From Escherichia phage pEC-M719-6WT.2, in the sequence record OQ845958.1: 64,000 bases of DNA. One strand, given 5' to 3'. Numbering within the stretch: the stretch's first letter is position 1; the number at the start of each line of letters is the position of its first letter. Position numbers and translations under genes: made by a program. Shown in pieces: positions 2 through 60,425 of this stretch. Below the pieces are notes generated by a model. That model saw nothing but the letters and a program-made list of their open reading frames with translations, did no database searches and was not told the DNA's origin.

Positions 2-733
2 AACTCTCTGAATGATTACTGCCGCCGCCCTGCGTTTTTGTTTGGTGCCACAGTTCGTAAGAGCATTAAGGAAATCCTGGCTGCAGGGCTTCGTATTCGC
101 AAGGCTCCGGTTAACATCAAGAACTATAATTTTAACTCCAGTAACTTGATTATCAATATCAAGAATGATGGTATACAGATTAAGTTCAAACCAACCACCA
201 AGGGCGACGTTGCTCTTTGTGATACCTTTAAAGAGGTTATGGGTATCGCACTGTTTTATATGCGCCATGCTGTTGAAGCATACACGTTTGAAGAAGATAC
301 AAATTATATCCACCAAACGGAAAAATTCCTTAAAACTATAGTCATTGATATTAAATTAACTAAAGAATATCTTTTGTCTTATGCACCTTATCAAGAGAAA
401 AAGGAACCAGAAATGGCAGAACATATCCCTACTGCGACATATAACCCAGCAGTTACAGGTCAGTTTAAATCTTACGACCAGGCTAAAATTTCACCACTGG
501 AAGTTAAAAATATGTATCAATGGAAAATCCAGCCAAACAGCTCTCTTGAAATCTTTAACCCACCAATGAAGCCTATTGAGAGCTATCATGCTGATGCTAT
601 CCAGGAATCAGTCAACCGCTTAAACGGTCTGATTGAAGATGAGAAAAAGGGTATCCAGGATGTTCTGAATCGCATCAAGAACATGGAAAAACAACGCAAT
701 AAATTGCAGGCGGCGATTTTAGCATTAAAATAA
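2..733 (+). CDS. hypothetical early protein, 5'-truncated at window edge
   Basis: Frame open from position 2; first in-window start is TTG-38; head of a tightly packed ORF chain upstream of nrdC. Confidence 0.4.
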   Translation, partial: NSLNDYCRRPAFLFGATVRKSIKEILAAGLRIRKAPVNIKNYNFNSSNLIINIKNDGIQIKFKPTTKGDVALCDTFKEVMGIALFYMRHAVEAYTFEEDTNYIHQTEKFLKTIVIDIKLTKEYLLSYAPYQEKKEPEMAEHIPTATYNPAVTGQFKSYDQAKISPLEVKNMYQWKIQPNSSLEIFNPPMKPIESYHADAIQESVNRLNGLIEDEKKGIQDVLNRIKNMEKQRNKLQAAILALK

Positions 734-791
734 TGTTTACTTCCAAGGATGGAGGGGGTATAATGAATTCCTACTTTATGAGGAGAACACT

Positions 792-1781
792 ATGACACGT
801 AATGAATATATCCAGGCCTTTAACACCACTATCGATGCAAAAGTAAAACCATTAATAGGTGAATCGGCTATCCTTTTAATTATCAATTACTGGTTAAATC
901 AGATTGACTCGACGATTGTTGCATCCGGTCGCTTCAAGAAAGACATTGCGACTATTGCGAGTCGTGCCGGTAAAGATGATATCAAGAAAACTTTTAAAGG
1001 TTCCCGAGTCCTGGCATACCTAGTTAATAAAGACCTTCTTAATAAGTTTGGTGTTGAATCCAGACGTGGTAAAGGTACAATTGGATATCATTGGTTTGGT
1101 GATGTTGAAAAATACTACCTTGATAAACAAGGCTATACTGTTTCTGAATTCGCAAATTGTTGGGCTCGTGAATTCAGAGATAACAAAATGTCTATCATAA
1201 AATCAGCGACAAAATTGATGGGCAGCGATTATCGCACTATCTCCCATTTGGCTGAGCACATGATAAATGTTAAAGAGTCTGGTGAAAACCAGGTAATTAT
1301 TACAGTTAAGTATGAATTCTTTACGCCGGTGGCTACTCCAGAAAATGTCAAAAAGTATCTTGATGCCGCGAGCACGCTTACTTCACAGCTGCAGTGTGCC
1401 CTTAATTATATGCGCACTGTTGAAAAAATTAAAGTAGACCCTATCACCAGTACTCATGGTTGGAAAGGTTGGAAAATTGTGGTGACATTACGCGAAGTTA
1501 AATGTGCAAAGCAACCAACTGTTGCAGAAATTTATAAAAAGAAAAGTGAGGAAATTATGAATGCTCCGCAAGAAACCACCCTTGAAGACCTGATTGATAA
1601 TCTGAATAATGAGCCAGTGGAACAAAAAGCGCCTGAAATTGTTGCTCTGGAAATGGCGTATAATAAAGCTCTTGCTGTTAATAAAAAGGCAACTGAAGAC
1701 TATACCAAAGCCAAGCGACTTTGGGAAGAATCAACTAATCGTCTGGATAAACTGGAACAGGCTCTGGAGCTGCTGAAATGA
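792..1781 (+). CDS. hypothetical protein (nrdC-distal early ORF)
   Basis: 329-aa ORF with ATG start; stop overlaps next start; no motif recognised. Confidence 0.55.
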   Translation: MTRNEYIQAFNTTIDAKVKPLIGESAILLIINYWLNQIDSTIVASGRFKKDIATIASRAGKDDIKKTFKGSRVLAYLVNKDLLNKFGVESRRGKGTIGYHWFGDVEKYYLDKQGYTVSEFANCWAREFRDNKMSIIKSATKLMGSDYRTISHLAEHMINVKESGENQVIITVKYEFFTPVATPENVKKYLDAASTLTSQLQCALNYMRTVEKIKVDPITSTHGWKGWKIVVTLREVKCAKQPTVAEIYKKKSEEIMNAPQETTLEDLIDNLNNEPVEQKAPEIVALEMAYNKALAVNKKATEDYTKAKRLWEESTNRLDKLEQALELLK

Positions 1782-28027: not shown

Positions 28028-28219
28028 ATGACTGCAATGTGTACGGGCTCTAAGATTTCGGTCTTCCAGATTTTTGAAGAATATGAAATCGTGTCGCAAG
28101 ACCAAGAAGCAATCCATGTTATCGCTGATGATGGTGTTACCTGGATTATTCCGTTGTATCATGAAGACACCTATGAAGTGACTGATGCAAATGGCGATAA
28201 AGCTATCTTCGTTGTATAA
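28028..28219 (+). CDS. hypothetical acidic protein
   Basis: 63-aa ORF. Confidence 0.35.
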   Translation: MTAMCTGSKISVFQIFEEYEIVSQDQEAIHVIADDGVTWIIPLYHEDTYEVTDANGDKAIFVV

Positions 28220-28222
28220 ATA
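28215..28222 (+). promoter_or_regulatory. late promoter TATAAATA
   Basis: Exact T4 late consensus 18 nt upstream of ATG-28240. Confidence 0.45.
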
Positions 28223-28239: not shown

Positions 28240-28407
28240 ATGAAAACATTCAAAGATTTTATCAATGAAGATATGGTTGCCGGTGATGCAGGTGGAAACC
28301 CAACTAATATCGCAACAGGTACCACTTCCGGGGCAGTTGTCAATAAAGGTCCTGAACAAATCCCATCAAAAAAGCGTAAGAATAAAGACGATAAACCTAC
28401 AGTATAA
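28240..28407 (+). CDS. small Gly/Thr-rich protein with basic tail, late-promoter driven
   Basis: 55-aa ORF with SD AAGGGGGG; followed by hairpin ATGGTCC-tccg-GGACCAT. Confidence 0.35.
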   Translation: MKTFKDFINEDMVAGDAGGNPTNIATGTTSGAVVNKGPEQIPSKKRKNKDDKPTV

Positions 28408-28439: not shown

Positions 28440-29468
28440 ATGTCATATATTGATAGAGAATTTGCAGTCAAAGCTTTATCGTATCAACCACGTTACAGAG
28501 AAGTCACCGGGAGCACATTTAAGGCAAACTGTCGTTGTAAGGTTTGTGGTGACTCCCAGAAAGATTCGCACAAGGCTCGATTCTGGGCGTATACCAATCC
28601 ATCTGATGGTGCGGTTTACGTGAAATGTTTTAACTGTGACTACTCCACGCATATAAGCAAATACATAAAAGAGTTTGAGCCGGATTTGCACCGGGAATAT
28701 ATGGTTGAGAAGTACAAGGAAAACGCCTTCGGTCGACAACGTAATGAAGTTGCAGAAGCTCCGAAAGAACCAGAAAAAACTCCGGTTATTGAAGAGCTTG
28801 CTTTTTGTGAAAGAATTGATACTTTACCAGAAGAGCATCCGATAGTTAAGTATGTAAAAAGTCGGTGTATTCCGAGCAATGTTTGGAACCGGTTATGGTT
28901 TACAAACAAATGGCCTGCATTAGTTAACTCCGTTAATCCTGGGACGTATAAGAATGAAACGAATGAACCACGCTTGGTTATTCCTATCTTCAACGGCAAA
29001 AAAGAAATCGAATCTTTCCAAGGACGAGCTCTTCGCAAAGATGCACCACAAAAATATATCACAATCAAAGCTCACCCAGAAGCTTCCAAAGTCTATGGCG
29101 TAGACAAGATTGATGAGCGCAAGCGCGTGTGGGTAATGGAAGGTCCGATTGATAGTTTGTTTATCCCTAACAGCATTGCGATAACTGGTGGAACATTAGC
29201 ATTGGAAGCCGTTCCTTATGCTGAAACCCGAGTATGGGTAATGGACAACGAGCCAAGACATCCGGATACGATTAAACGTATGAAGAAGCTCGTTGAAGCG
29301 GGTGAAGCCGTTATGTTCTGGGACAATGCACCATGGCATACGAAAGACATAAATGAGATGGTTAAATCGGAGGGCGCAACCCCTGAACAAATCGAATCAT
29401 ATATGGCCGATAACATTGCTCAAGGGTTGATGGCGAGAATGCGACTTTCGAAGTACGCAAAAGTTTAG
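28440..29468 (+). CDS. 61: DNA primase gp61
   Basis: 342 aa; N-terminal zinc ribbon (CRCKVCGDS...CFNCDY); same length as T4 gp61. Confidence 0.92.
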   Translation: MSYIDREFAVKALSYQPRYREVTGSTFKANCRCKVCGDSQKDSHKARFWAYTNPSDGAVYVKCFNCDYSTHISKYIKEFEPDLHREYMVEKYKENAFGRQRNEVAEAPKEPEKTPVIEELAFCERIDTLPEEHPIVKYVKSRCIPSNVWNRLWFTNKWPALVNSVNPGTYKNETNEPRLVIPIFNGKKEIESFQGRALRKDAPQKYITIKAHPEASKVYGVDKIDERKRVWVMEGPIDSLFIPNSIAITGGTLALEAVPYAETRVWVMDNEPRHPDTIKRMKKLVEAGEAVMFWDNAPWHTKDINEMVKSEGATPEQIESYMADNIAQGLMARMRLSKYAKV

Positions 29469-29586
29469 GAAGGAATTCCGGTAAGTTCCGCAGAAAAACA
29501 TCAAGAGCTAAAAAGCCCATGATGTTTCTTGTCTTTCTTACTGGTTAATTTCCAAATCCGATGGAATAATATTCACATTATTCCAT

Positions 29587-29784
29587 CTATATAAGGCCGA
29601 TTAATGCCAGTAAAATATCTACAACTGATTCGAGTGCAATGACTGGTAATATAACACCATGTGTCAATGCAACAGGGGCAACAACGAAGTTCCATAGTAG
29701 AACTAAACAGAGTATCGAAAGGACCAGAATCGTTCGCTTACGACTGCCTTTGATGGCTTGAATTAGACTAGATAGTTTGAGCAT
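29587..29784 (-). CDS. small two-TM membrane protein (reverse strand)
   Basis: 65 aa from internal Met with strong SD GGAGGA 5 nt upstream; hairpin downstream of stop. Confidence 0.45.
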   Translation of the reverse strand: MLKLSSLIQAIKGSRKRTILVLSILCLVLLWNFVVAPVALTHGVILPVIALESVVDILLALIGLI

Positions 29785-29869
29785 ATATCCTCCTTCCGTG
29801 TATTTATGCTTCAAACCAATATGATATAATTAACATACAAAATAACATGAATTGATAAGGAAAAATATA

Positions 29870-30388
29870 ATGGCTCATTTTAATGAATGTTCACAACTGA
29901 TTGCCGGTGTTGATAAAGCTGCTCTGGCTTATGACAATGCAATTACAAAAGGTACTGACCCGCTGCAGATTATGCTTGATATGCAGAAATCATTGCAAGT
30001 TCGTCTGGCTACTGAAAAACCAGAATATAACTCACATCCAGATGAATTGGCTACTGCAGGTGATGTTGTTGCATGGCTTCGTAACCAGAAAGATTATATC
30101 GACGACGAATTCCGTGAACTTCTGACTTCTCTCGGTGGTATGTCTAATGGCGAGAAAGCTGCATCTAGTGTATGGAAACCATGGAAAGTCCAACATGCTG
30201 AATTCCGTAATCGTCGTATTGATGAGTTGTCTCCCGAAGACCAGCTCGAAATTAAATTTGAGATGATTGATATCCTGCACTTTGTTCTGAACATGTTCCA
30301 TGGCCTTGGACTGACTGCAGAAGAAATCTTTAAATTGTATTACCTGAAAAACGCTGAGAACTTTGCTCGTCAGGACCGGGGTTATTAA
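29870..30388 (+). CDS. 56: dCTP pyrophosphatase gp56 (MazG-like dCTPase/dUTPase)
   Basis: 172 aa, MAHFNECSQLIAGVDKA...IDDEFRELLTSLG...FARQDRGY; strong match to remembered T4 gp56. Confidence 0.88.
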   Translation: MAHFNECSQLIAGVDKAALAYDNAITKGTDPLQIMLDMQKSLQVRLATEKPEYNSHPDELATAGDVVAWLRNQKDYIDDEFRELLTSLGGMSNGEKAASSVWKPWKVQHAEFRNRRIDELSPEDQLEIKFEMIDILHFVLNMFHGLGLTAEEIFKLYYLKNAENFARQDRGY

Positions 30389-30429: not shown

Positions 30430-30663
30430 ATGGGTGGTTTCGTTAATATCAAAACCTTTACGCATCCAGCTGGTGAAGGTAAAGAAGTTAAAGGTGTTGA
30501 AGTATCTGTTCCGTTTGAAATCTATTCAAATGAGCATCGTATTGCGAATGCACACTATCAGACTTTTCCTTCCGAAAAGGCCGCTTATGTCACCGTAGCG
30601 TCTAGTGCAGCTGATTGGCGAACTAAGAACGCGGCGATGTTTACGCCTACCCCAGTAGTTTAA
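30430..30663 (+). CDS. soc: small outer capsid protein Soc
   Basis: 77 aa, FVNIKTF...AHYQTFPSEKAAY matches remembered T4 Soc; late promoter upstream, terminator downstream. Confidence 0.85.
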   Translation: MGGFVNIKTFTHPAGEGKEVKGVEVSVPFEIYSNEHRIANAHYQTFPSEKAAYVTVASSAADWRTKNAAMFTPTPVV

Positions 30664-40485: not shown

Positions 40486-42318
40486 ATGATGATTAATAAT
40501 GAAATTAAAGTACTCTCGGACGTCGAGCATATCAAAAAACGTTCCGGGATGTATATTGGTTCCAGTTCAAATGAAGCGCATGAGCGATTCTTGTTTGGTG
40601 AATATAAGTCCGTAAGCTATGTTCCTGGTATTGTAAAACTGATTGATGAAATTATCGATAACTCTGTTGATGAAGCAATTCGCACCAGTTTTAAATTTGC
40701 CAATAAAATTGATGTCCAAATTAAAGATAATCAGATTTCGGTTTCCGATAATGGCCGTGGTATTCCACAAGCAATGGTTACAGACCAAAACGGTGAACAA
40801 ATCCCTGGCCCGGTTGCAGCATGGACTATTCCAAAAGCAGGTGGTAACTTCGGTGATGATGCTGAACGTAAAACTGGTGGGATGAATGGCGTCGGGTCTT
40901 CTCTGACCAATATTTTCTCTGTATTGTTCACCGGGATTACTGCCGACGGCACAAATGAAATCACCGTTAACTGCTCCAATGGTATGGAAAACAAAGGTTG
41001 GTCTACCAAGAAATCTAAGGGTAAAGGTACAACTGTTATTTTTGTTCCGGACTTCAGTCACTTTGAAGAAAATAGCCTGTCCCAGATTTATCTGGATATT
41101 ACATTGGACCGTCTGCAGACTCTTGCGGTTGTTTATCCGGATATTCAGTTTACCTTTAATGGTAAAAAGGTTGATGGCAATTTCAAGAAGTTCGCCAAGC
41201 AATTCGGAACCGAAGTTGTTATCCAGGAAACTGATACAGTATCGATGGCCTTTACGACTAGCCCGGATGGTTTCCGCCAGTTGACTTATGTCAACAACAT
41301 TCATACAAAGAATGGTGGGCACCACGTTGAATGTGTTATGGATGATATCTGTGAACATCTTCAGCCAGCCATTAAACGCAAATATAAAGGCATTGAGGTG
41401 ACAAAGGCACGAGTTAAAGAATGCCTCACCATGCTTATGTTCATTCGCGATATGAGCAACATGCGATTTGATTCCCAGACTAAGGAGCGATTGACTTCTC
41501 CGGCTGGTGAAATTCGAAATCACATTAAGATTGATGCCAAGAAAATCGCACAAGCTATTCTGAAAAATGAACCACTGATTATGCCGATTGTTGAAGCTGC
41601 ATTAGCCCGTAAATTGGCTGCAGAGAAAGCAGCAGAGACCAAGGCGAATAAGAAAGCTTCAAAGGCCAAGGTGCAAAAGCATATCAAGGCCAACGAATGG
41701 GGCAATGATAAGCTGGAAACGACTCTATTCCTGACCGAAGGTGATTCTGCAACCGGTCCATTTATCAAGGTCCGCGACCGTGAATTACAAGGTGCTTATC
41801 CGTTACGTGGTAAGTTCAAAAACACATGGGGTCTGAAAGCTGTTGACGTTATGAAGAACGCCGAAGCCTTTGATGTGTGTGCGATTACTGGTTTAACGAT
41901 TGGACAACCGGCCGAGAATATGAATTACCGAAACATTGCTATCATGACAGATGCGGATGTGGATGGTGTCGGTAGTATCTATCCATCGTTATTGGCGTTT
42001 TTCAGTAACTGGCCAGAGCTGTTCCATGAAGGACGAATTCGCTTTGTGAAAACTCCTGTTATTATTGCGCAGCTCAAAGATAAACAAGAATGGTTCTATT
42101 CTCTTCCTGACTATGAAGAAGCTAAGGATAAACTTCCGAAGCACACCATCCGATATATCAAGGGGCTTGGTTCTCTGGAAGATGCCGAGTACAAACGCGT
42201 ATTGCTCGAACCAGTATTCGAAGTTGTTCAATTGCCCGACAACTGGAAAGAACTGTTCGAAATGCTCTTCGGTAAAGATTCCCAGCAGCGTAAAGATTGG
42301 ATGAATGCGACACTATAA
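40486..42318 (+). CDS. 39: DNA topoisomerase II large subunit gp39 (GyrB-like), fused 39+60 form
   Basis: 610 aa single ORF with GHKL ATPase and TOPRIM regions; no separate gene 60. Confidence 0.93.
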   Translation: MMINNEIKVLSDVEHIKKRSGMYIGSSSNEAHERFLFGEYKSVSYVPGIVKLIDEIIDNSVDEAIRTSFKFANKIDVQIKDNQISVSDNGRGIPQAMVTDQNGEQIPGPVAAWTIPKAGGNFGDDAERKTGGMNGVGSSLTNIFSVLFTGITADGTNEITVNCSNGMENKGWSTKKSKGKGTTVIFVPDFSHFEENSLSQIYLDITLDRLQTLAVVYPDIQFTFNGKKVDGNFKKFAKQFGTEVVIQETDTVSMAFTTSPDGFRQLTYVNNIHTKNGGHHVECVMDDICEHLQPAIKRKYKGIEVTKARVKECLTMLMFIRDMSNMRFDSQTKERLTSPAGEIRNHIKIDAKKIAQAILKNEPLIMPIVEAALARKLAAEKAAETKANKKASKAKVQKHIKANEWGNDKLETTLFLTEGDSATGPFIKVRDRELQGAYPLRGKFKNTWGLKAVDVMKNAEAFDVCAITGLTIGQPAENMNYRNIAIMTDADVDGVGSIYPSLLAFFSNWPELFHEGRIRFVKTPVIIAQLKDKQEWFYSLPDYEEAKDKLPKHTIRYIKGLGSLEDAEYKRVLLEPVFEVVQLPDNWKELFEMLFGKDSQQRKDWMNATL

Positions 42319-42321
42319 ATA
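42314..42321 (+). promoter_or_regulatory. late promoter TATAAATA overlapping gp39 stop
   Basis: Exact consensus, then palindrome ACGGGAGAAT/ATTCTCCCGT and SD AGGAGAAG. Confidence 0.45.
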
Positions 42322-42360: not shown

Positions 42361-42513
42361 ATGAAAAAGTGGTGGGTTACGTTGTCAAATGGCGAATACG
42401 GTTATCTGTGGGCCGATACTAAACCTCTGTTTGCATCCTTTGTCACCATTATGTGCGAGACTTGGGATGGCGAATACTATACCGCATATGGGCAAGTCTA
42501 TAAAGTTGAGTAG
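42361..42513 (+). CDS. small Trp/Tyr-rich protein, late-promoter driven
   Basis: 50-aa ORF flanked by TATAAATA and intrinsic terminator. Confidence 0.35.
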   Translation: MKKWWVTLSNGEYGYLWADTKPLFASFVTIMCETWDGEYYTAYGQVYKVE

Positions 42514-54715: not shown

Positions 54716-54991
54716 ATGACTAAATTTGAAATCGTTTCTGAAATTGTTACTATAACTTCAATTTTGATTAAAACCGACCGGGAAGATATTACGATGAAGC
54801 GCGATGTGTTTATCGCGTTTTTGAATGAGTTGGGATTGAGAAATGAGAATGGGAATGAGTTAAACAATGTATCGTTTAACAAATTGTTTAAAAGTTTATC
54901 TGAAGATGAAATTGAACAAATCATTGAACAATTTAACGAAGGATTCGAAGATATACACCGTTATCTTATGATGTATACCTCCGGATTCTAA
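54716..54991 (+). CDS. asiA: anti-sigma70 factor AsiA
   Basis: 91 aa; EIVTITSILIK...FIAFLNE...EQFNEGFE..HRYL.MYT matches remembered T4 AsiA. Confidence 0.85.
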   Translation: MTKFEIVSEIVTITSILIKTDREDITMKRDVFIAFLNELGLRNENGNELNNVSFNKLFKSLSEDEIEQIIEQFNEGFEDIHRYLMMYTSGF

Positions 54992-55641
54992 CGTGTACGC
55001 CCGAGCGTACGACCTGCTTGTCCACACATAGAAGAAAGCCTATCAAAACCAAGGTCGGGTTTTTGCTTATACCAGTACAGTGAGACTGTGCCTGCATAAA
55101 CGTTTTCCAAATTAAAGAATGGGCAGCTGAACATATATGTGAAGCTGCTTTTTTTCTTTGTTGGTAAGAATACAGATTCCACACTGGATTCAAAATAATT
55201 ACCATTAACCCCCGCCAAATATTCCGCTGAAGTCTTATCTATTGGAAACCCACCTAAATTTTTTTCGTCGACTGTATCAGGCAATATCCCCTCGTAACCC
55301 ACCATATCCACAAAGTAGTTAAGGTTAGTTGGTCTAAAAGAATATATTGCTGTAAAGTCTGCCCCACTTGACGAGTGGACTATCTGGATTTGCTCGATAG
55401 CTGCAATTTTAAATCTGTTATCCTGGTCTTGCCTTATCATTTCAGTGTATGAGGCATATGAAGCATCCCTGTACGCATCTAAAAGTGCATCACCTTTATA
55501 CCAGATTACCGCCATTAAAAATAATAGAACAATAACTAGTACCCGGGAAAAAACAACTTTCCCGGTCGCATTATCTTTAAAAATTCTATCAAGAAGTCCA
55601 AAAAGTAGGTCAGGTATTGATATTCCTACTTTTGGTTCCAT
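54988..55641 (-). CDS. t: holin T
   Basis: 217 aa; LDR.FKDNATGKV..SRV, HSSSGADFTAIYSFRP.NLNYFVD matches remembered T4 holin; late promoter and SD upstream. Confidence 0.92.
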   Translation of the reverse strand: MEPKVGISIPDLLFGLLDRIFKDNATGKVVFSRVLVIVLLFLMAVIWYKGDALLDAYRDASYASYTEMIRQDQDNRFKIAAIEQIQIVHSSSGADFTAIYSFRPTNLNYFVDMVGYEGILPDTVDEKNLGGFPIDKTSAEYLAGVNGNYFESSVESVFLPTKKKSSFTYMFSCPFFNLENVYAGTVSLYWYKQKPDLGFDRLSSMCGQAGRTLGRTR

Positions 55642-59777: not shown

Positions 59778-60425
59778 TTAATAATATCCAAAATCTTGTA
59801 CGGAGTCTTTAAGAACGATTTGGTCAAAACGAGGCACATGGGCCGGGTCTGATGCTGGGTTCCTAGAGAAGAAATTAGGTGCTGACAAGTTACCTGTCAT
59901 TGTTTGCAATGTACTATTATTTAGTTCTACCTGTTGCTGGTTAGTTACATTACCAAGACCAACTTGAGCTTTTGACGGAGTATTCCCTGGAGAAAATACA
60001 CGACCTGTTTCATCATAAATTTGTCGAGCTAACGTATCACCCATAACAGTAAGACGTTTTGCTCCCGTCGTAGTGTCAGGGTCAAAAATAACGAATGGTG
60101 TTCCTGTTTCAGTCTCAAATCCGAATGGTCCTTTAATACGGAAAGATGCGGTAAATGGTGCACCGCCTGTTCTCGCTCCTAACTTAATCCCGTAACCATT
60201 TGAATCGTTAAATGTCAGGCCTTGTTCGAAATATACATTTGCTTTATAATTACCACCAAGAGCTTTAGAAACAAAATCGTTATCGACTGCTTGTGGCTTG
60301 TTATATTCGGAATAAATTTTATAAGTTTTGAAATATAAGTCATTACTGACTGGTGTTAATGGGAAATTACCCTGGTGCCAGAGGACCGAACCTCCGGCTG
60401 TTGAGCCTAGTTTTAAATCTGCCAT
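59778..60425 (-). CDS. 36: long tail fibre subunit gp36
   Basis: 215-aa ORF between gp35 and gp37 with own late promoter. Confidence 0.8.
   Translation of the reverse strand: MADLKLGSTAGGSVLWHQGNFPLTPVSNDLYFKTYKIYSEYNKPQAVDNDFVSKALGGNYKANVYFEQGLTFNDSNGYGIKLGARTGGAPFTASFRIKGPFGFETETGTPFVIFDPDTTTGAKRLTVMGDTLARQIYDETGRVFSPGNTPSKAQVGLGNVTNQQQVELNNSTLQTMTGNLSAPNFFSRNPASDPAHVPRFDQIVLKDSVQDFGYY

Follow-up and report, generated by a model that had tools for sequence, protein, structure and literature searches.

Class II holins, or pinholins, such as S68 of phage 21, are proteins of ~65–70 aa with two hydrophobic segments that bear polar residues. They carry a charged C-terminal cytoplasmic tail and are encoded in a lysis cassette beside a signal-anchor-release (SAR) endolysin. 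The T-even phages have another holin, T, with the antiholins RI and RIII. The closest described relatives of the gene treated here are the open reading frames (ORFs) of the family phrog_2024, also called RB32ORF030w, RB69ORF029w, or VR7ORF033w. The DNA analyzed (hereafter the window) is a 64,000-nt stretch of Escherichia phage pEC-M719-6WT.2 (OQ845958.1), which is a Gaprivervirus (Tevenvirinae); the region of the locus is 99% identical to those of Escherichia phages UPEC07, TH22, and TH55. Between gene 61 (DNA primase) and gene 56 (dCTPase), the minus strand of the window carries a phrog_2024 gene of 65 codons, here called copy A, next to the remains of a second copy, copy B. Copy A is very probably a conserved, late-transcribed membrane-protein gene.

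A minus-strand 65-aa ORF between genes 61 and 56 had been proposed from the nucleotide sequence without database searches (the sequence-only reading). It is present, running from 29784 to 29590 plus the stop, and the protein sequence quoted for it was exact. The interval, described as about 400 bp without a plus-strand ORF of the size of dam, is 401 bp long and contains no plus-strand ORF longer than 40 aa. An alternative TTG start, which gives 75 aa and is annotated in CJ20, is rejected because the Shine-Dalgarno (SD) sequence belongs to the ATG and the promoter box described below would sit inside the extension. The product matches phrog_2024 over its full length (E = 6.4e-26, residues 1–65 on positions 1–65 of the 65-position profile). 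This match and the purifying selection described below support a genuine opposite-strand gene for a small membrane protein.

All 20 diverse family members that were compared with phrog_2024 match it (best E = 4e-31). A tblastn search finds the small gene in about 824 phage records. When 1.84 billion representative proteins were searched exhaustively with a profile, only 15 clusters at 50% identity emerged, all with lengths of 45–72 aa. The family is found in at least eight genera of Tevenvirinae (Tequatro-, Mosig-, Gapriver-, Dhaka-, Jiaoda-, Mosuguk-, Gelderland-, and Kanagawavirus) and is restricted to Tevenvirinae infecting Enterobacterales. Nearly all members with readable context lie in a T4-type genome, and there they follow directly on gene 61, convergent with it and on the other strand from the early genes. 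This is the case in T4, RB14, Mosigvirus, Jiaodavirus, Dhakavirus JS98, Mosugukvirus PM2, Gelderlandvirus, Kanagawavirus, two metagenomic contigs, and the window; the exceptions are the members P0078 and P0083. The arrangement had been called unusual, which does not hold: it is the rule across the eight genera, and an identical protein has already been deposited as a hypothetical protein (QUL77728.1 and WCD43570.1). It had also been proposed that a lack of conservation among relatives would speak against the gene; copy A is intact in all 16 gapriverviruses compared.

The ratio of nonsynonymous to synonymous substitution rates (dN/dS, Nei-Gojobori) is 0.38 for copy A within Gaprivervirus, 0.09 for copy B in Dhakavirus plus Gaprivervirus, and 0.15 for the small gene between T4 and RB14. 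By these ratios, the small gene is real and under purifying selection. The ORF is short and its product very hydrophobic (grand average of hydropathy, GRAVY, 1.64), as would be expected of a non-functional chance ORF or of a type-I-toxin-like membrane poison. Either is extremely improbable. A chance ORF is excluded by the synteny across at least eight genera, the purifying selection, and the conserved promoter and SD. As for a poison, Josslin is said to have found in 1970 that T4 t-mutant infections keep making phage long after the late genes have been switched on. This finding speaks against a strong membrane toxin at native levels. The observation that T4 gene t knock-outs never lyse (PMC6832632) argues in the same direction.

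In most lineages the stop codon of the small gene overlaps that of gene 61 by 4 nt. This overlap leaves no room for a terminator, and therefore late transcripts must enter gene 61 in antisense. At several sites in T4, transcription of both strands is known (PMC2988020). It could thus be considered that the late antisense transcription into the 3′ end of gene 61 shuts down the primase, and that the ORF is secondary. Such an RNA-level role is very unlikely. The dN/dS values of 0.09–0.38, the motifs kept at 25–45% identity, and the strong conserved SD show that selection acts on the protein itself. In the window, moreover, the copy A ORF is set apart from gene 61 by 118 bp and a hairpin.

The sequence-only reading placed the gene where T4 carries dam, and took it to stand there instead of dam. 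No Dam homologue is found anywhere in the window. However, T4 has dam plus a 66-aa orthologue of the small gene with 49% identity, at NC_000866 17738..17938 (locus L004, 3739..3939 (+)), with AAAGGAGG and GATAAATA upstream. The replacement of dam is therefore rejected. In T4 and Bas37, dam is a variable insert on the far side of the small gene. Of the two, dam is the lineage-specific insert and the small gene the conserved resident.

The T4 orthologue sits in an unannotated 310-bp gap between dam and gene 61 of the reference genome. Its counterparts are annotated in RB14 and RB32, as in the majority of the newer Tequatrovirus records. For the exact T4 66-aa protein there is neither an NCBI protein accession nor an entry in the T4D gene table of the HIDEN-SEQ study. 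No paper naming the small ORF, and nothing relevant on ribosome profiling of small ORFs in T4, was found in the literature. Copy A or copy B is also unannotated in SP18, JS98, IME08, and VR20. Some labels in this region are wrong: copy B or its remnant is called "DNA packaging ATPase" in UPEC01 (QQG30882.1; L032 1266..1466) and YenM_P8 (XAO54517.1; L035 2003..2104), and the neighboring gp61.1 is called "major capsid domain-containing protein" (L001 1341..1508).

Homing endonucleases are inserted at differing points of the interval between genes 61 and 56 in RZ (L033 1266..2015), YenM_P8 (L035 1266..2033), and KP1079 (L007 1762..2316). In RZ and YenM_P8 the endonuclease gene directly follows gene 61 and lies between gene 61 and the copy B remnant. 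Together with dam and segF in T4, these positions mark the interval as an insertion hotspot.

Upstream of copy A, the minus strand reads GAAG-CATAAATA-CACGG-AAGGAGG-ATAT-ATG in the 5′ to 3′ direction. The SD had been given as GGAGGA at 5 nt from the ATG; it is AAGGAGG with a 4-nt spacer, a trivial difference. An SD of the GGAGG type is seen at the equivalent place in all lineages compared. The late-promoter-like box, which had been placed about 17 nt upstream, is CATAAATA, 16 nt before the ATG. It differs from the consensus TATAAATA of late promoters recognized by gp55 at position −13 alone. This position is the least conserved in late promoters of the T4 family, and variants of it are tolerated (PMC2988020; PMC1524935). 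A NATAAATA box begins 20–30 nt before the first ATG of the cassette in every lineage, while the surrounding sequence has diverged. The variants are CATAAATA in all gapriverviruses and Jiaodavirus, AATAAATA in RB14, Mosigvirus, and JS98, and GATAAATA in T4 and PM2; TATAAATA itself is seen upstream of the small gene in two IMG/VR phages (L020 and L026). Given that every lineage has kept the promoter box, late transcription of the small gene, as proposed in the sequence-only reading, is very probable.

The whole window, both strands included, contains eight NATAAATA boxes, and seven of them sit 16–39 nt upstream of an ORF start. In this genome the motif is thus rare and has predictive value; soc, a tail-fibre gene, and the holin gene t are among the genes downstream. 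Gene t and the long-tail-fibre connector gene are both on the minus strand with TATAAATA boxes, which makes this strand the one for late genes in the window; the small gene is on it as well. Soc is a single gene in the window (30430..30663) and tandem-duplicated (soca and socb) in Shigella phage SP18 (L003 3520..3985).

Two perfect TATAAATA sequences are present on the plus strand, which is the early-gene strand. One (28215–28222) is 17 nt before gp61.1 (28240..28407, phrog_1823), and the other (42314–42321) is 39 nt before a 50-aa ORF (starting at 42361, phrog_4369). These two small genes of early clusters may be late-transcribed, too.

On the plus strand, the late box meets a probable middle promoter of gene 56, composed of TATGCTTCA, 11 nt, and TATAAT, which we take to be the MotA-type pattern of T4 middle promoters. 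Its TG overlaps the first base of the opposite-strand late box, and JS98 is arranged similarly. The overlap may explain the C at position −13 of the late box. At the equivalent place, oriA and the start region of the gene 56 transcript are annotated in T4. The features of the locus, and the two late genes used for comparison, are listed in Table 1.

Table 1. Features of the gene 61–56 locus and two late genes elsewhere in the window.
Feature	Position	Strand	Description	Basis
Gene 61 (DNA primase)	28440..29468	+	Convergent neighbor of copy A	phrog_47, E=1e-94
Copy B remnant	29470..29586	-	Pseudogene remnant; 66 aa when intact	Alignment with P479 and JS98
Inverted repeat	29560..29587	.	Perfect repeat GATGGAATAAT(G)/(T)ATTATTCCATC; 11-12 bp stem, 4-6 nt loop	Sequence and folding
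Copy A	29587..29784	-	Small membrane-protein gene, 65 aa, phrog_2024; ATG at 29784, TAG 29587-29589	ORF list and sequence
Shine-Dalgarno of copy A	29788..29794	-	AAGGAGG; 4-nt spacer (ATAT) to ATG	Read from sequence
Late-promoter box of copy A	29808..29801	-	CATAAATA; 16 nt from box end to ATG	Variant of gp55 consensus TATAAATA
Probable MotA-type middle promoter of gene 56	29803..29828	+	TATGCTTCA, 11 nt, TATAAT	Sequence
Gene 56 (dCTPase)	29870..30388	+		phrog_173, E=3e-45
Holin gene t	54988..55641	-	T-type; TATAAATA 18 nt before ATG	phrog_860, E=6e-93; box scan
Long-tail-fibre connector gene	59778-60425	-	TATAAATA box	Box scan

Between copy A and gene 61 lies the remnant of copy B. The intact copy B encodes a 66-aa protein of the JS98 type, and its stop overlaps gene 61. 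Tandem intact copies A and B are seen in the gapriverviruses P479, MN01, UPEC01, VR25, and VR26. There, the ATG of copy B is 8 nt past the stop of copy A and copy B has no NATAAATA box of its own, and therefore the two fit an operon where both exist. Compared with P479, the remnant in the window has a nonsense mutation at codon 2 (ATG GGA to ATG TGA), a 2-bp deletion, and an internal deletion of ~85 bp; the fragments recognized by tblastn are LFHRIWKLTSKKDKK and IMGFLALDVFLRNL. Among the 16 gapriverviruses, at least three kinds of change have inactivated copy B: the nonsense mutation at codon 2, with or without further deletions; a 5′ deletion of residues 1–27 (SP18, P896, and YenM_P8); and the insertion of a homing endonuclease (RZ and YenM_P8). 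Dhakaviruses retain copy B alone. No phage lacking both copies was found among those examined, each of which has at least one intact copy. By this comparison, the window once held two tandem paralogues, of which copy B decayed, and the hairpin now sits on its remains.

The hairpin had been noticed past the stop codon of the ORF, and a stem of 11–12 bp is indeed present at 29560..29587. The minus-strand sequence following the stop of copy A is GATGGAATAATGTGAATATTATTCCATC. The hairpin overlaps this stop and covers the former SD and start codon (ATG) of copy B. As minus-strand RNA, its folding energy is −13.7 to −15.8 kcal/mol (z = −2.5), and 6 of 200 shuffled sequences fold equally well. In the two-copy phages, an imperfect and weaker stem (−9.4 kcal/mol) is present there, which would occlude the ribosome-binding site of copy B. 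The perfect stem is found only in the lineage with the dead copy B.

A conserved terminator is rejected as the reading of this hairpin: it lies on the start of a dead paralogue, and it is perfect only where copy B is dead. The terminator scan did not call it because it has no U-tract; the only terminator-like site in that scan was a weak 5-bp stem at 29518..29505 on the minus strand. The comparison with Rfam gave only a chance match below threshold (SpF11, 29 bits against a gathering score of 54 bits). The hairpin may be a 3′ stabilizer or a weak bidirectional stop, but the family as a whole does not share it. In EAWsc9 (L002 ~2660–2690), the 6-nt loop is inverted between identical 11-bp arms (ATTCAC versus GTGAAT on the same strand). 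Such a flip of the loop is a micro-inversion that the inverted repeat has mediated.

The product of copy A has five basic residues between positions 3 and 17 (K3, K12, R15, K16, and R17) and none after R17, and by the positive-inside rule the N-terminus is therefore predicted to be cytoplasmic. The AlphaFold2 model, based on an alignment of 17 sequences, has a mean predicted local distance difference test (pLDDT) score of 82.7. It contains helices at residues 2–11, 15–41 (27 residues), and 51–64 (14 residues), with a non-helical linker of 9 residues at 42–50. The helix 15–41 has a mean hydropathy of 2.39 and a negligible hydrophobic moment (0.09). The C-terminal helix, which has a conserved acidic residue at its start, is amphipathic in every branch (moment 0.95–1.64), and in most branches it is only weakly hydrophobic (mean hydropathy 0.4–1.7).

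The protein had been described as having two transmembrane (TM) segments. One TM helix, 15–41, stands; the second is not secure, as the C-terminal helix is amphipathic and only 14 residues long. For the family as a whole, the model and the hydropathy analysis favor a single genuine TM helix, followed by a C-terminal helix that is interfacial or re-entrant. A two-TM hairpin is possible for the branch of the window protein, although not secure.

W31 and P37 are invariant in the family, N32, A39, G43, and P47 are near-invariant, and position 52 is acidic. The family motif can be written as a basic patch followed by W-N-[FYL]-x3-P-x-A and [HQFY]-G-x2-L-P-x3-[LIM]-[ED]. The window protein follows it with K12–R17, W31 N32 F33, P37, A39, H42 G43, L46 P47, and L51 E52.

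Faint similarity to holins is seen in diverged members of the family. P0083, P0079, and P0081 align in the same register to positions ~66/74–117 of the 123 positions of PF11351 (GTA_holin_3TM), with E values of 0.03–0.1. P0083 also matches the holin-annotated phrog_3427 (E = 5e-4), and two members match the holin-annotated phrog_11161 (E = 0.012). This similarity, which amounts to a lead and does not place the protein in a holin family, probably explains the sporadic automated "holin" labels. P0083 (59 aa, L014 129..308) lies on a 2.2-kb contig, 17 nt upstream of a 352-aa gene with a RelA_SpoT domain (325..1383, PF04607 E = 2.5e-19). P0078 (L039 9260..11082), the one member from outside the T4-type genomes, lies on a siphovirus-like contig between a tail-tip gene and a serine recombinase gene, a position resembling that of a lysis cassette. 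Next to it are an EndoVII gene and the genes of two proteins, one of 94 aa, which combines an N-terminal TM segment with a coiled coil, and one of 179 aa. The 179-aa protein has no lysin signature, and the reading of this contig as a lysis cassette is unconfirmed.

These matches raise the question of whether the small protein is a true accessory holin or pinholin, that is, a two-helix relative of TM2–TM3 of the 3-TM holins that itself permeabilizes or depolarizes the inner membrane. The same-register matches in three members, the two holin-annotated profiles, the late promoter, the conserved polar residues in the hydrophobic segments (N32, E52, and D56), and the "holin" label given by some submitters are all in line with it. 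The protein also has at least one TM domain, the helix 15–41. We nevertheless regard an accessory holin as improbable. T has no substitute in T4, as t knock-outs never lyse; therefore nothing else makes a lethal hole, and a self-sufficient holin is unlikely. No endolysin or spanin gene forms a lysis cassette with the small gene, whose neighbors encode the primase and the dCTPase, and the structure has one long helix and one 14-residue helix instead of the three TM helices of PF11351. The phage has a T holin of its own, the similarity scores are all below threshold, the "holin" labels are automated, and transposon insertions in the counterpart in phage Bas37 are neutral.

This counterpart, bas37_0144, is a 201-nt gene on the opposite strand with a 4-nt overlap with the primase stop (bioRxiv 10.1101/2025.11.20.689424). 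In the data of that preprint, HIDEN-SEQ hit 20 of its 24 TA sites and classed it as "Non-essential", and its log2 fold changes were +0.33 and +0.20 (q = 1) in two condition comparisons (10.1101/2025.11.20.689424). As the counterpart tolerates insertions, a strongly toxic or essential role is unlikely. The non-essentiality of bas37_0144 and the repeated loss of copy B where copy A is present indicate an accessory function, not an essential one.

The sequence-only reading had suggested a lysis modulator, a toxin, or an exclusion factor. Our tentative preference, still well short of probable, is that the small protein is a non-essential accessory factor that resides in the inner membrane and modulates envelope or lysis events late in infection. 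It would be inserted in the inner membrane with the basic N-terminus (K3, K12, R15, K16, and R17) in the cytoplasm. The long TM helix would bear the W-N-x4-P motif, whose Trp and Pro are invariant and whose Asn is near-invariant, and the conserved His/Gly…Leu-Pro linker and the short, acidic-capped amphipathic helix would lie at the periplasmic face. The protein could act via helix–helix interaction or oligomerization in the inner membrane, and it might, for example, affect when or how robustly T-holin-dependent lysis occurs, or affect lysis inhibition. It would be neither a stand-alone holin nor a toxin.

Several observations weigh against this accessory role. The window protein has no match in Pfam or NCBIfam, including PF11351, and the scores of the diverged members against GTA_holin_3TM are 13–15 bits (best 15.3, E = 0.03), below the cutoff of 24.8 bits. 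In Foldseek, the hits were family members in BFVD only, with no match in the PDB. Profile comparison detected no similarity between the family and the T holin of the phage itself, and ~26 kb lie between copy A and gene t. Holins typically have a charged C-terminal tail, which is absent here; the C-terminus is …LLALIGLI, and the charged patch is N-terminal. No recognizable endolysin was found beside P0078. The two Bas37 comparisons gave no phenotype for bas37_0144, and the main text of the preprint does not list this gene as a conditional hit. The orthology of bas37_0144 is itself based on position, size, and strand, backed by the sequence-verified bas42_0142, and not on its own sequence.

It can be speculated further that the small protein is an overlooked late inner-membrane protein of T4 and essentially all enterobacterial T-even phages, and a component of the lysis-timing or lysis-inhibition machinery of the T holin, RI, and RIII. 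It might, for example, be a partner that relays or stabilizes the superinfection signal, derived distantly from the last two helices of 3-TM holins. We consider this extension a long shot.

The dispensability of the gene also bears on another kind of role, in superinfection, exclusion, or host range. The protein might block the DNA entry or envelope damage of a secondary phage late in infection, or it might counter a membrane-acting defence of some natural hosts. A small inner-membrane protein that is dispensable on laboratory K-12, as the Bas37 data indicate, would suit such a role. So would the restriction of the family to Tevenvirinae infecting Enterobacterales, the location in a hypervariable accessory region near sp, and the gain and loss of the second copy, a turnover typical of host-interaction genes. 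Even so, this role is rather unlikely. The T4 exclusion genes imm and sp are early-expressed, while the promoter here is late. The only match in PADLOC is at chance level (E = 0.049, 10.7 bits, a restriction enzyme model). In the main text of the HIDEN-SEQ study, the gene is not named among those conditionally essential on uropathogenic isolates or defence-expressing hosts. Furthermore, its position and presence are far more conserved than those of typical anti-defence cargo.

The window gene itself is of little import, as it is a catalogued hypothetical protein gene whose product is identical to deposited sequences. What matters more is that T4, the best-studied phage, has a conserved and probably late membrane-protein gene in the dam–61 gap that is absent from the reference annotation. 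The libraries of CRISPRi-ART target annotated coding sequences only (PMC11879866). Being unannotated, the T4 gene has been left out of such annotation-based screens (CRISPRi-ART and the HIDEN-SEQ T4D gene table). The family was already catalogued and the protein deposited, and the arrangement of the locus is the norm. The gap in the T4 annotation, the late box in every lineage, the turnover of paralogues with a dead copy under the hairpin, and the faint holin-like signal are new here. The strict linkage to the 3′ end of the primase gene, the paralogue turnover, and the holin-like signal make the gene a cheap, well-defined target for study.

Compared with the known systems, copy A resembles S68 in its similar size and its two hydrophobic segments with polar residues. 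It differs in that its charge is N-terminal, its C-terminus is hydrophobic, and it has no lysis cassette, and no sequence similarity to class II holins such as S68 was detected. The proteins of PF11351, phrog_3427, and phrog_11161 are likewise small phage membrane proteins; where PF11351 has three hydrophobic helices, the phrog_2024 family has two at most, and it is about half as long and lacks an endolysin neighbor. We know of no r or t phenotype that genetic work has mapped to the dam–61 gap. Like the T4 holin T with its antiholins RI and RIII, copy A has a late box of the TATAAATA type (18 nt from the ATG in t and 16 nt in copy A), lies on the same strand, and is predicted to be in the inner membrane. 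Unlike T, it has 65 aa instead of 217 aa and no large periplasmic domain, and it shares neither sequence nor profile similarity with T. The closest system is formed by the other phrog_2024 ORFs of the T-even phages, which have the same length, strand, position convergent with gene 61, late box, and SD. To these the window adds a decayed second paralogue and a strengthened hairpin, and nothing essential differs.

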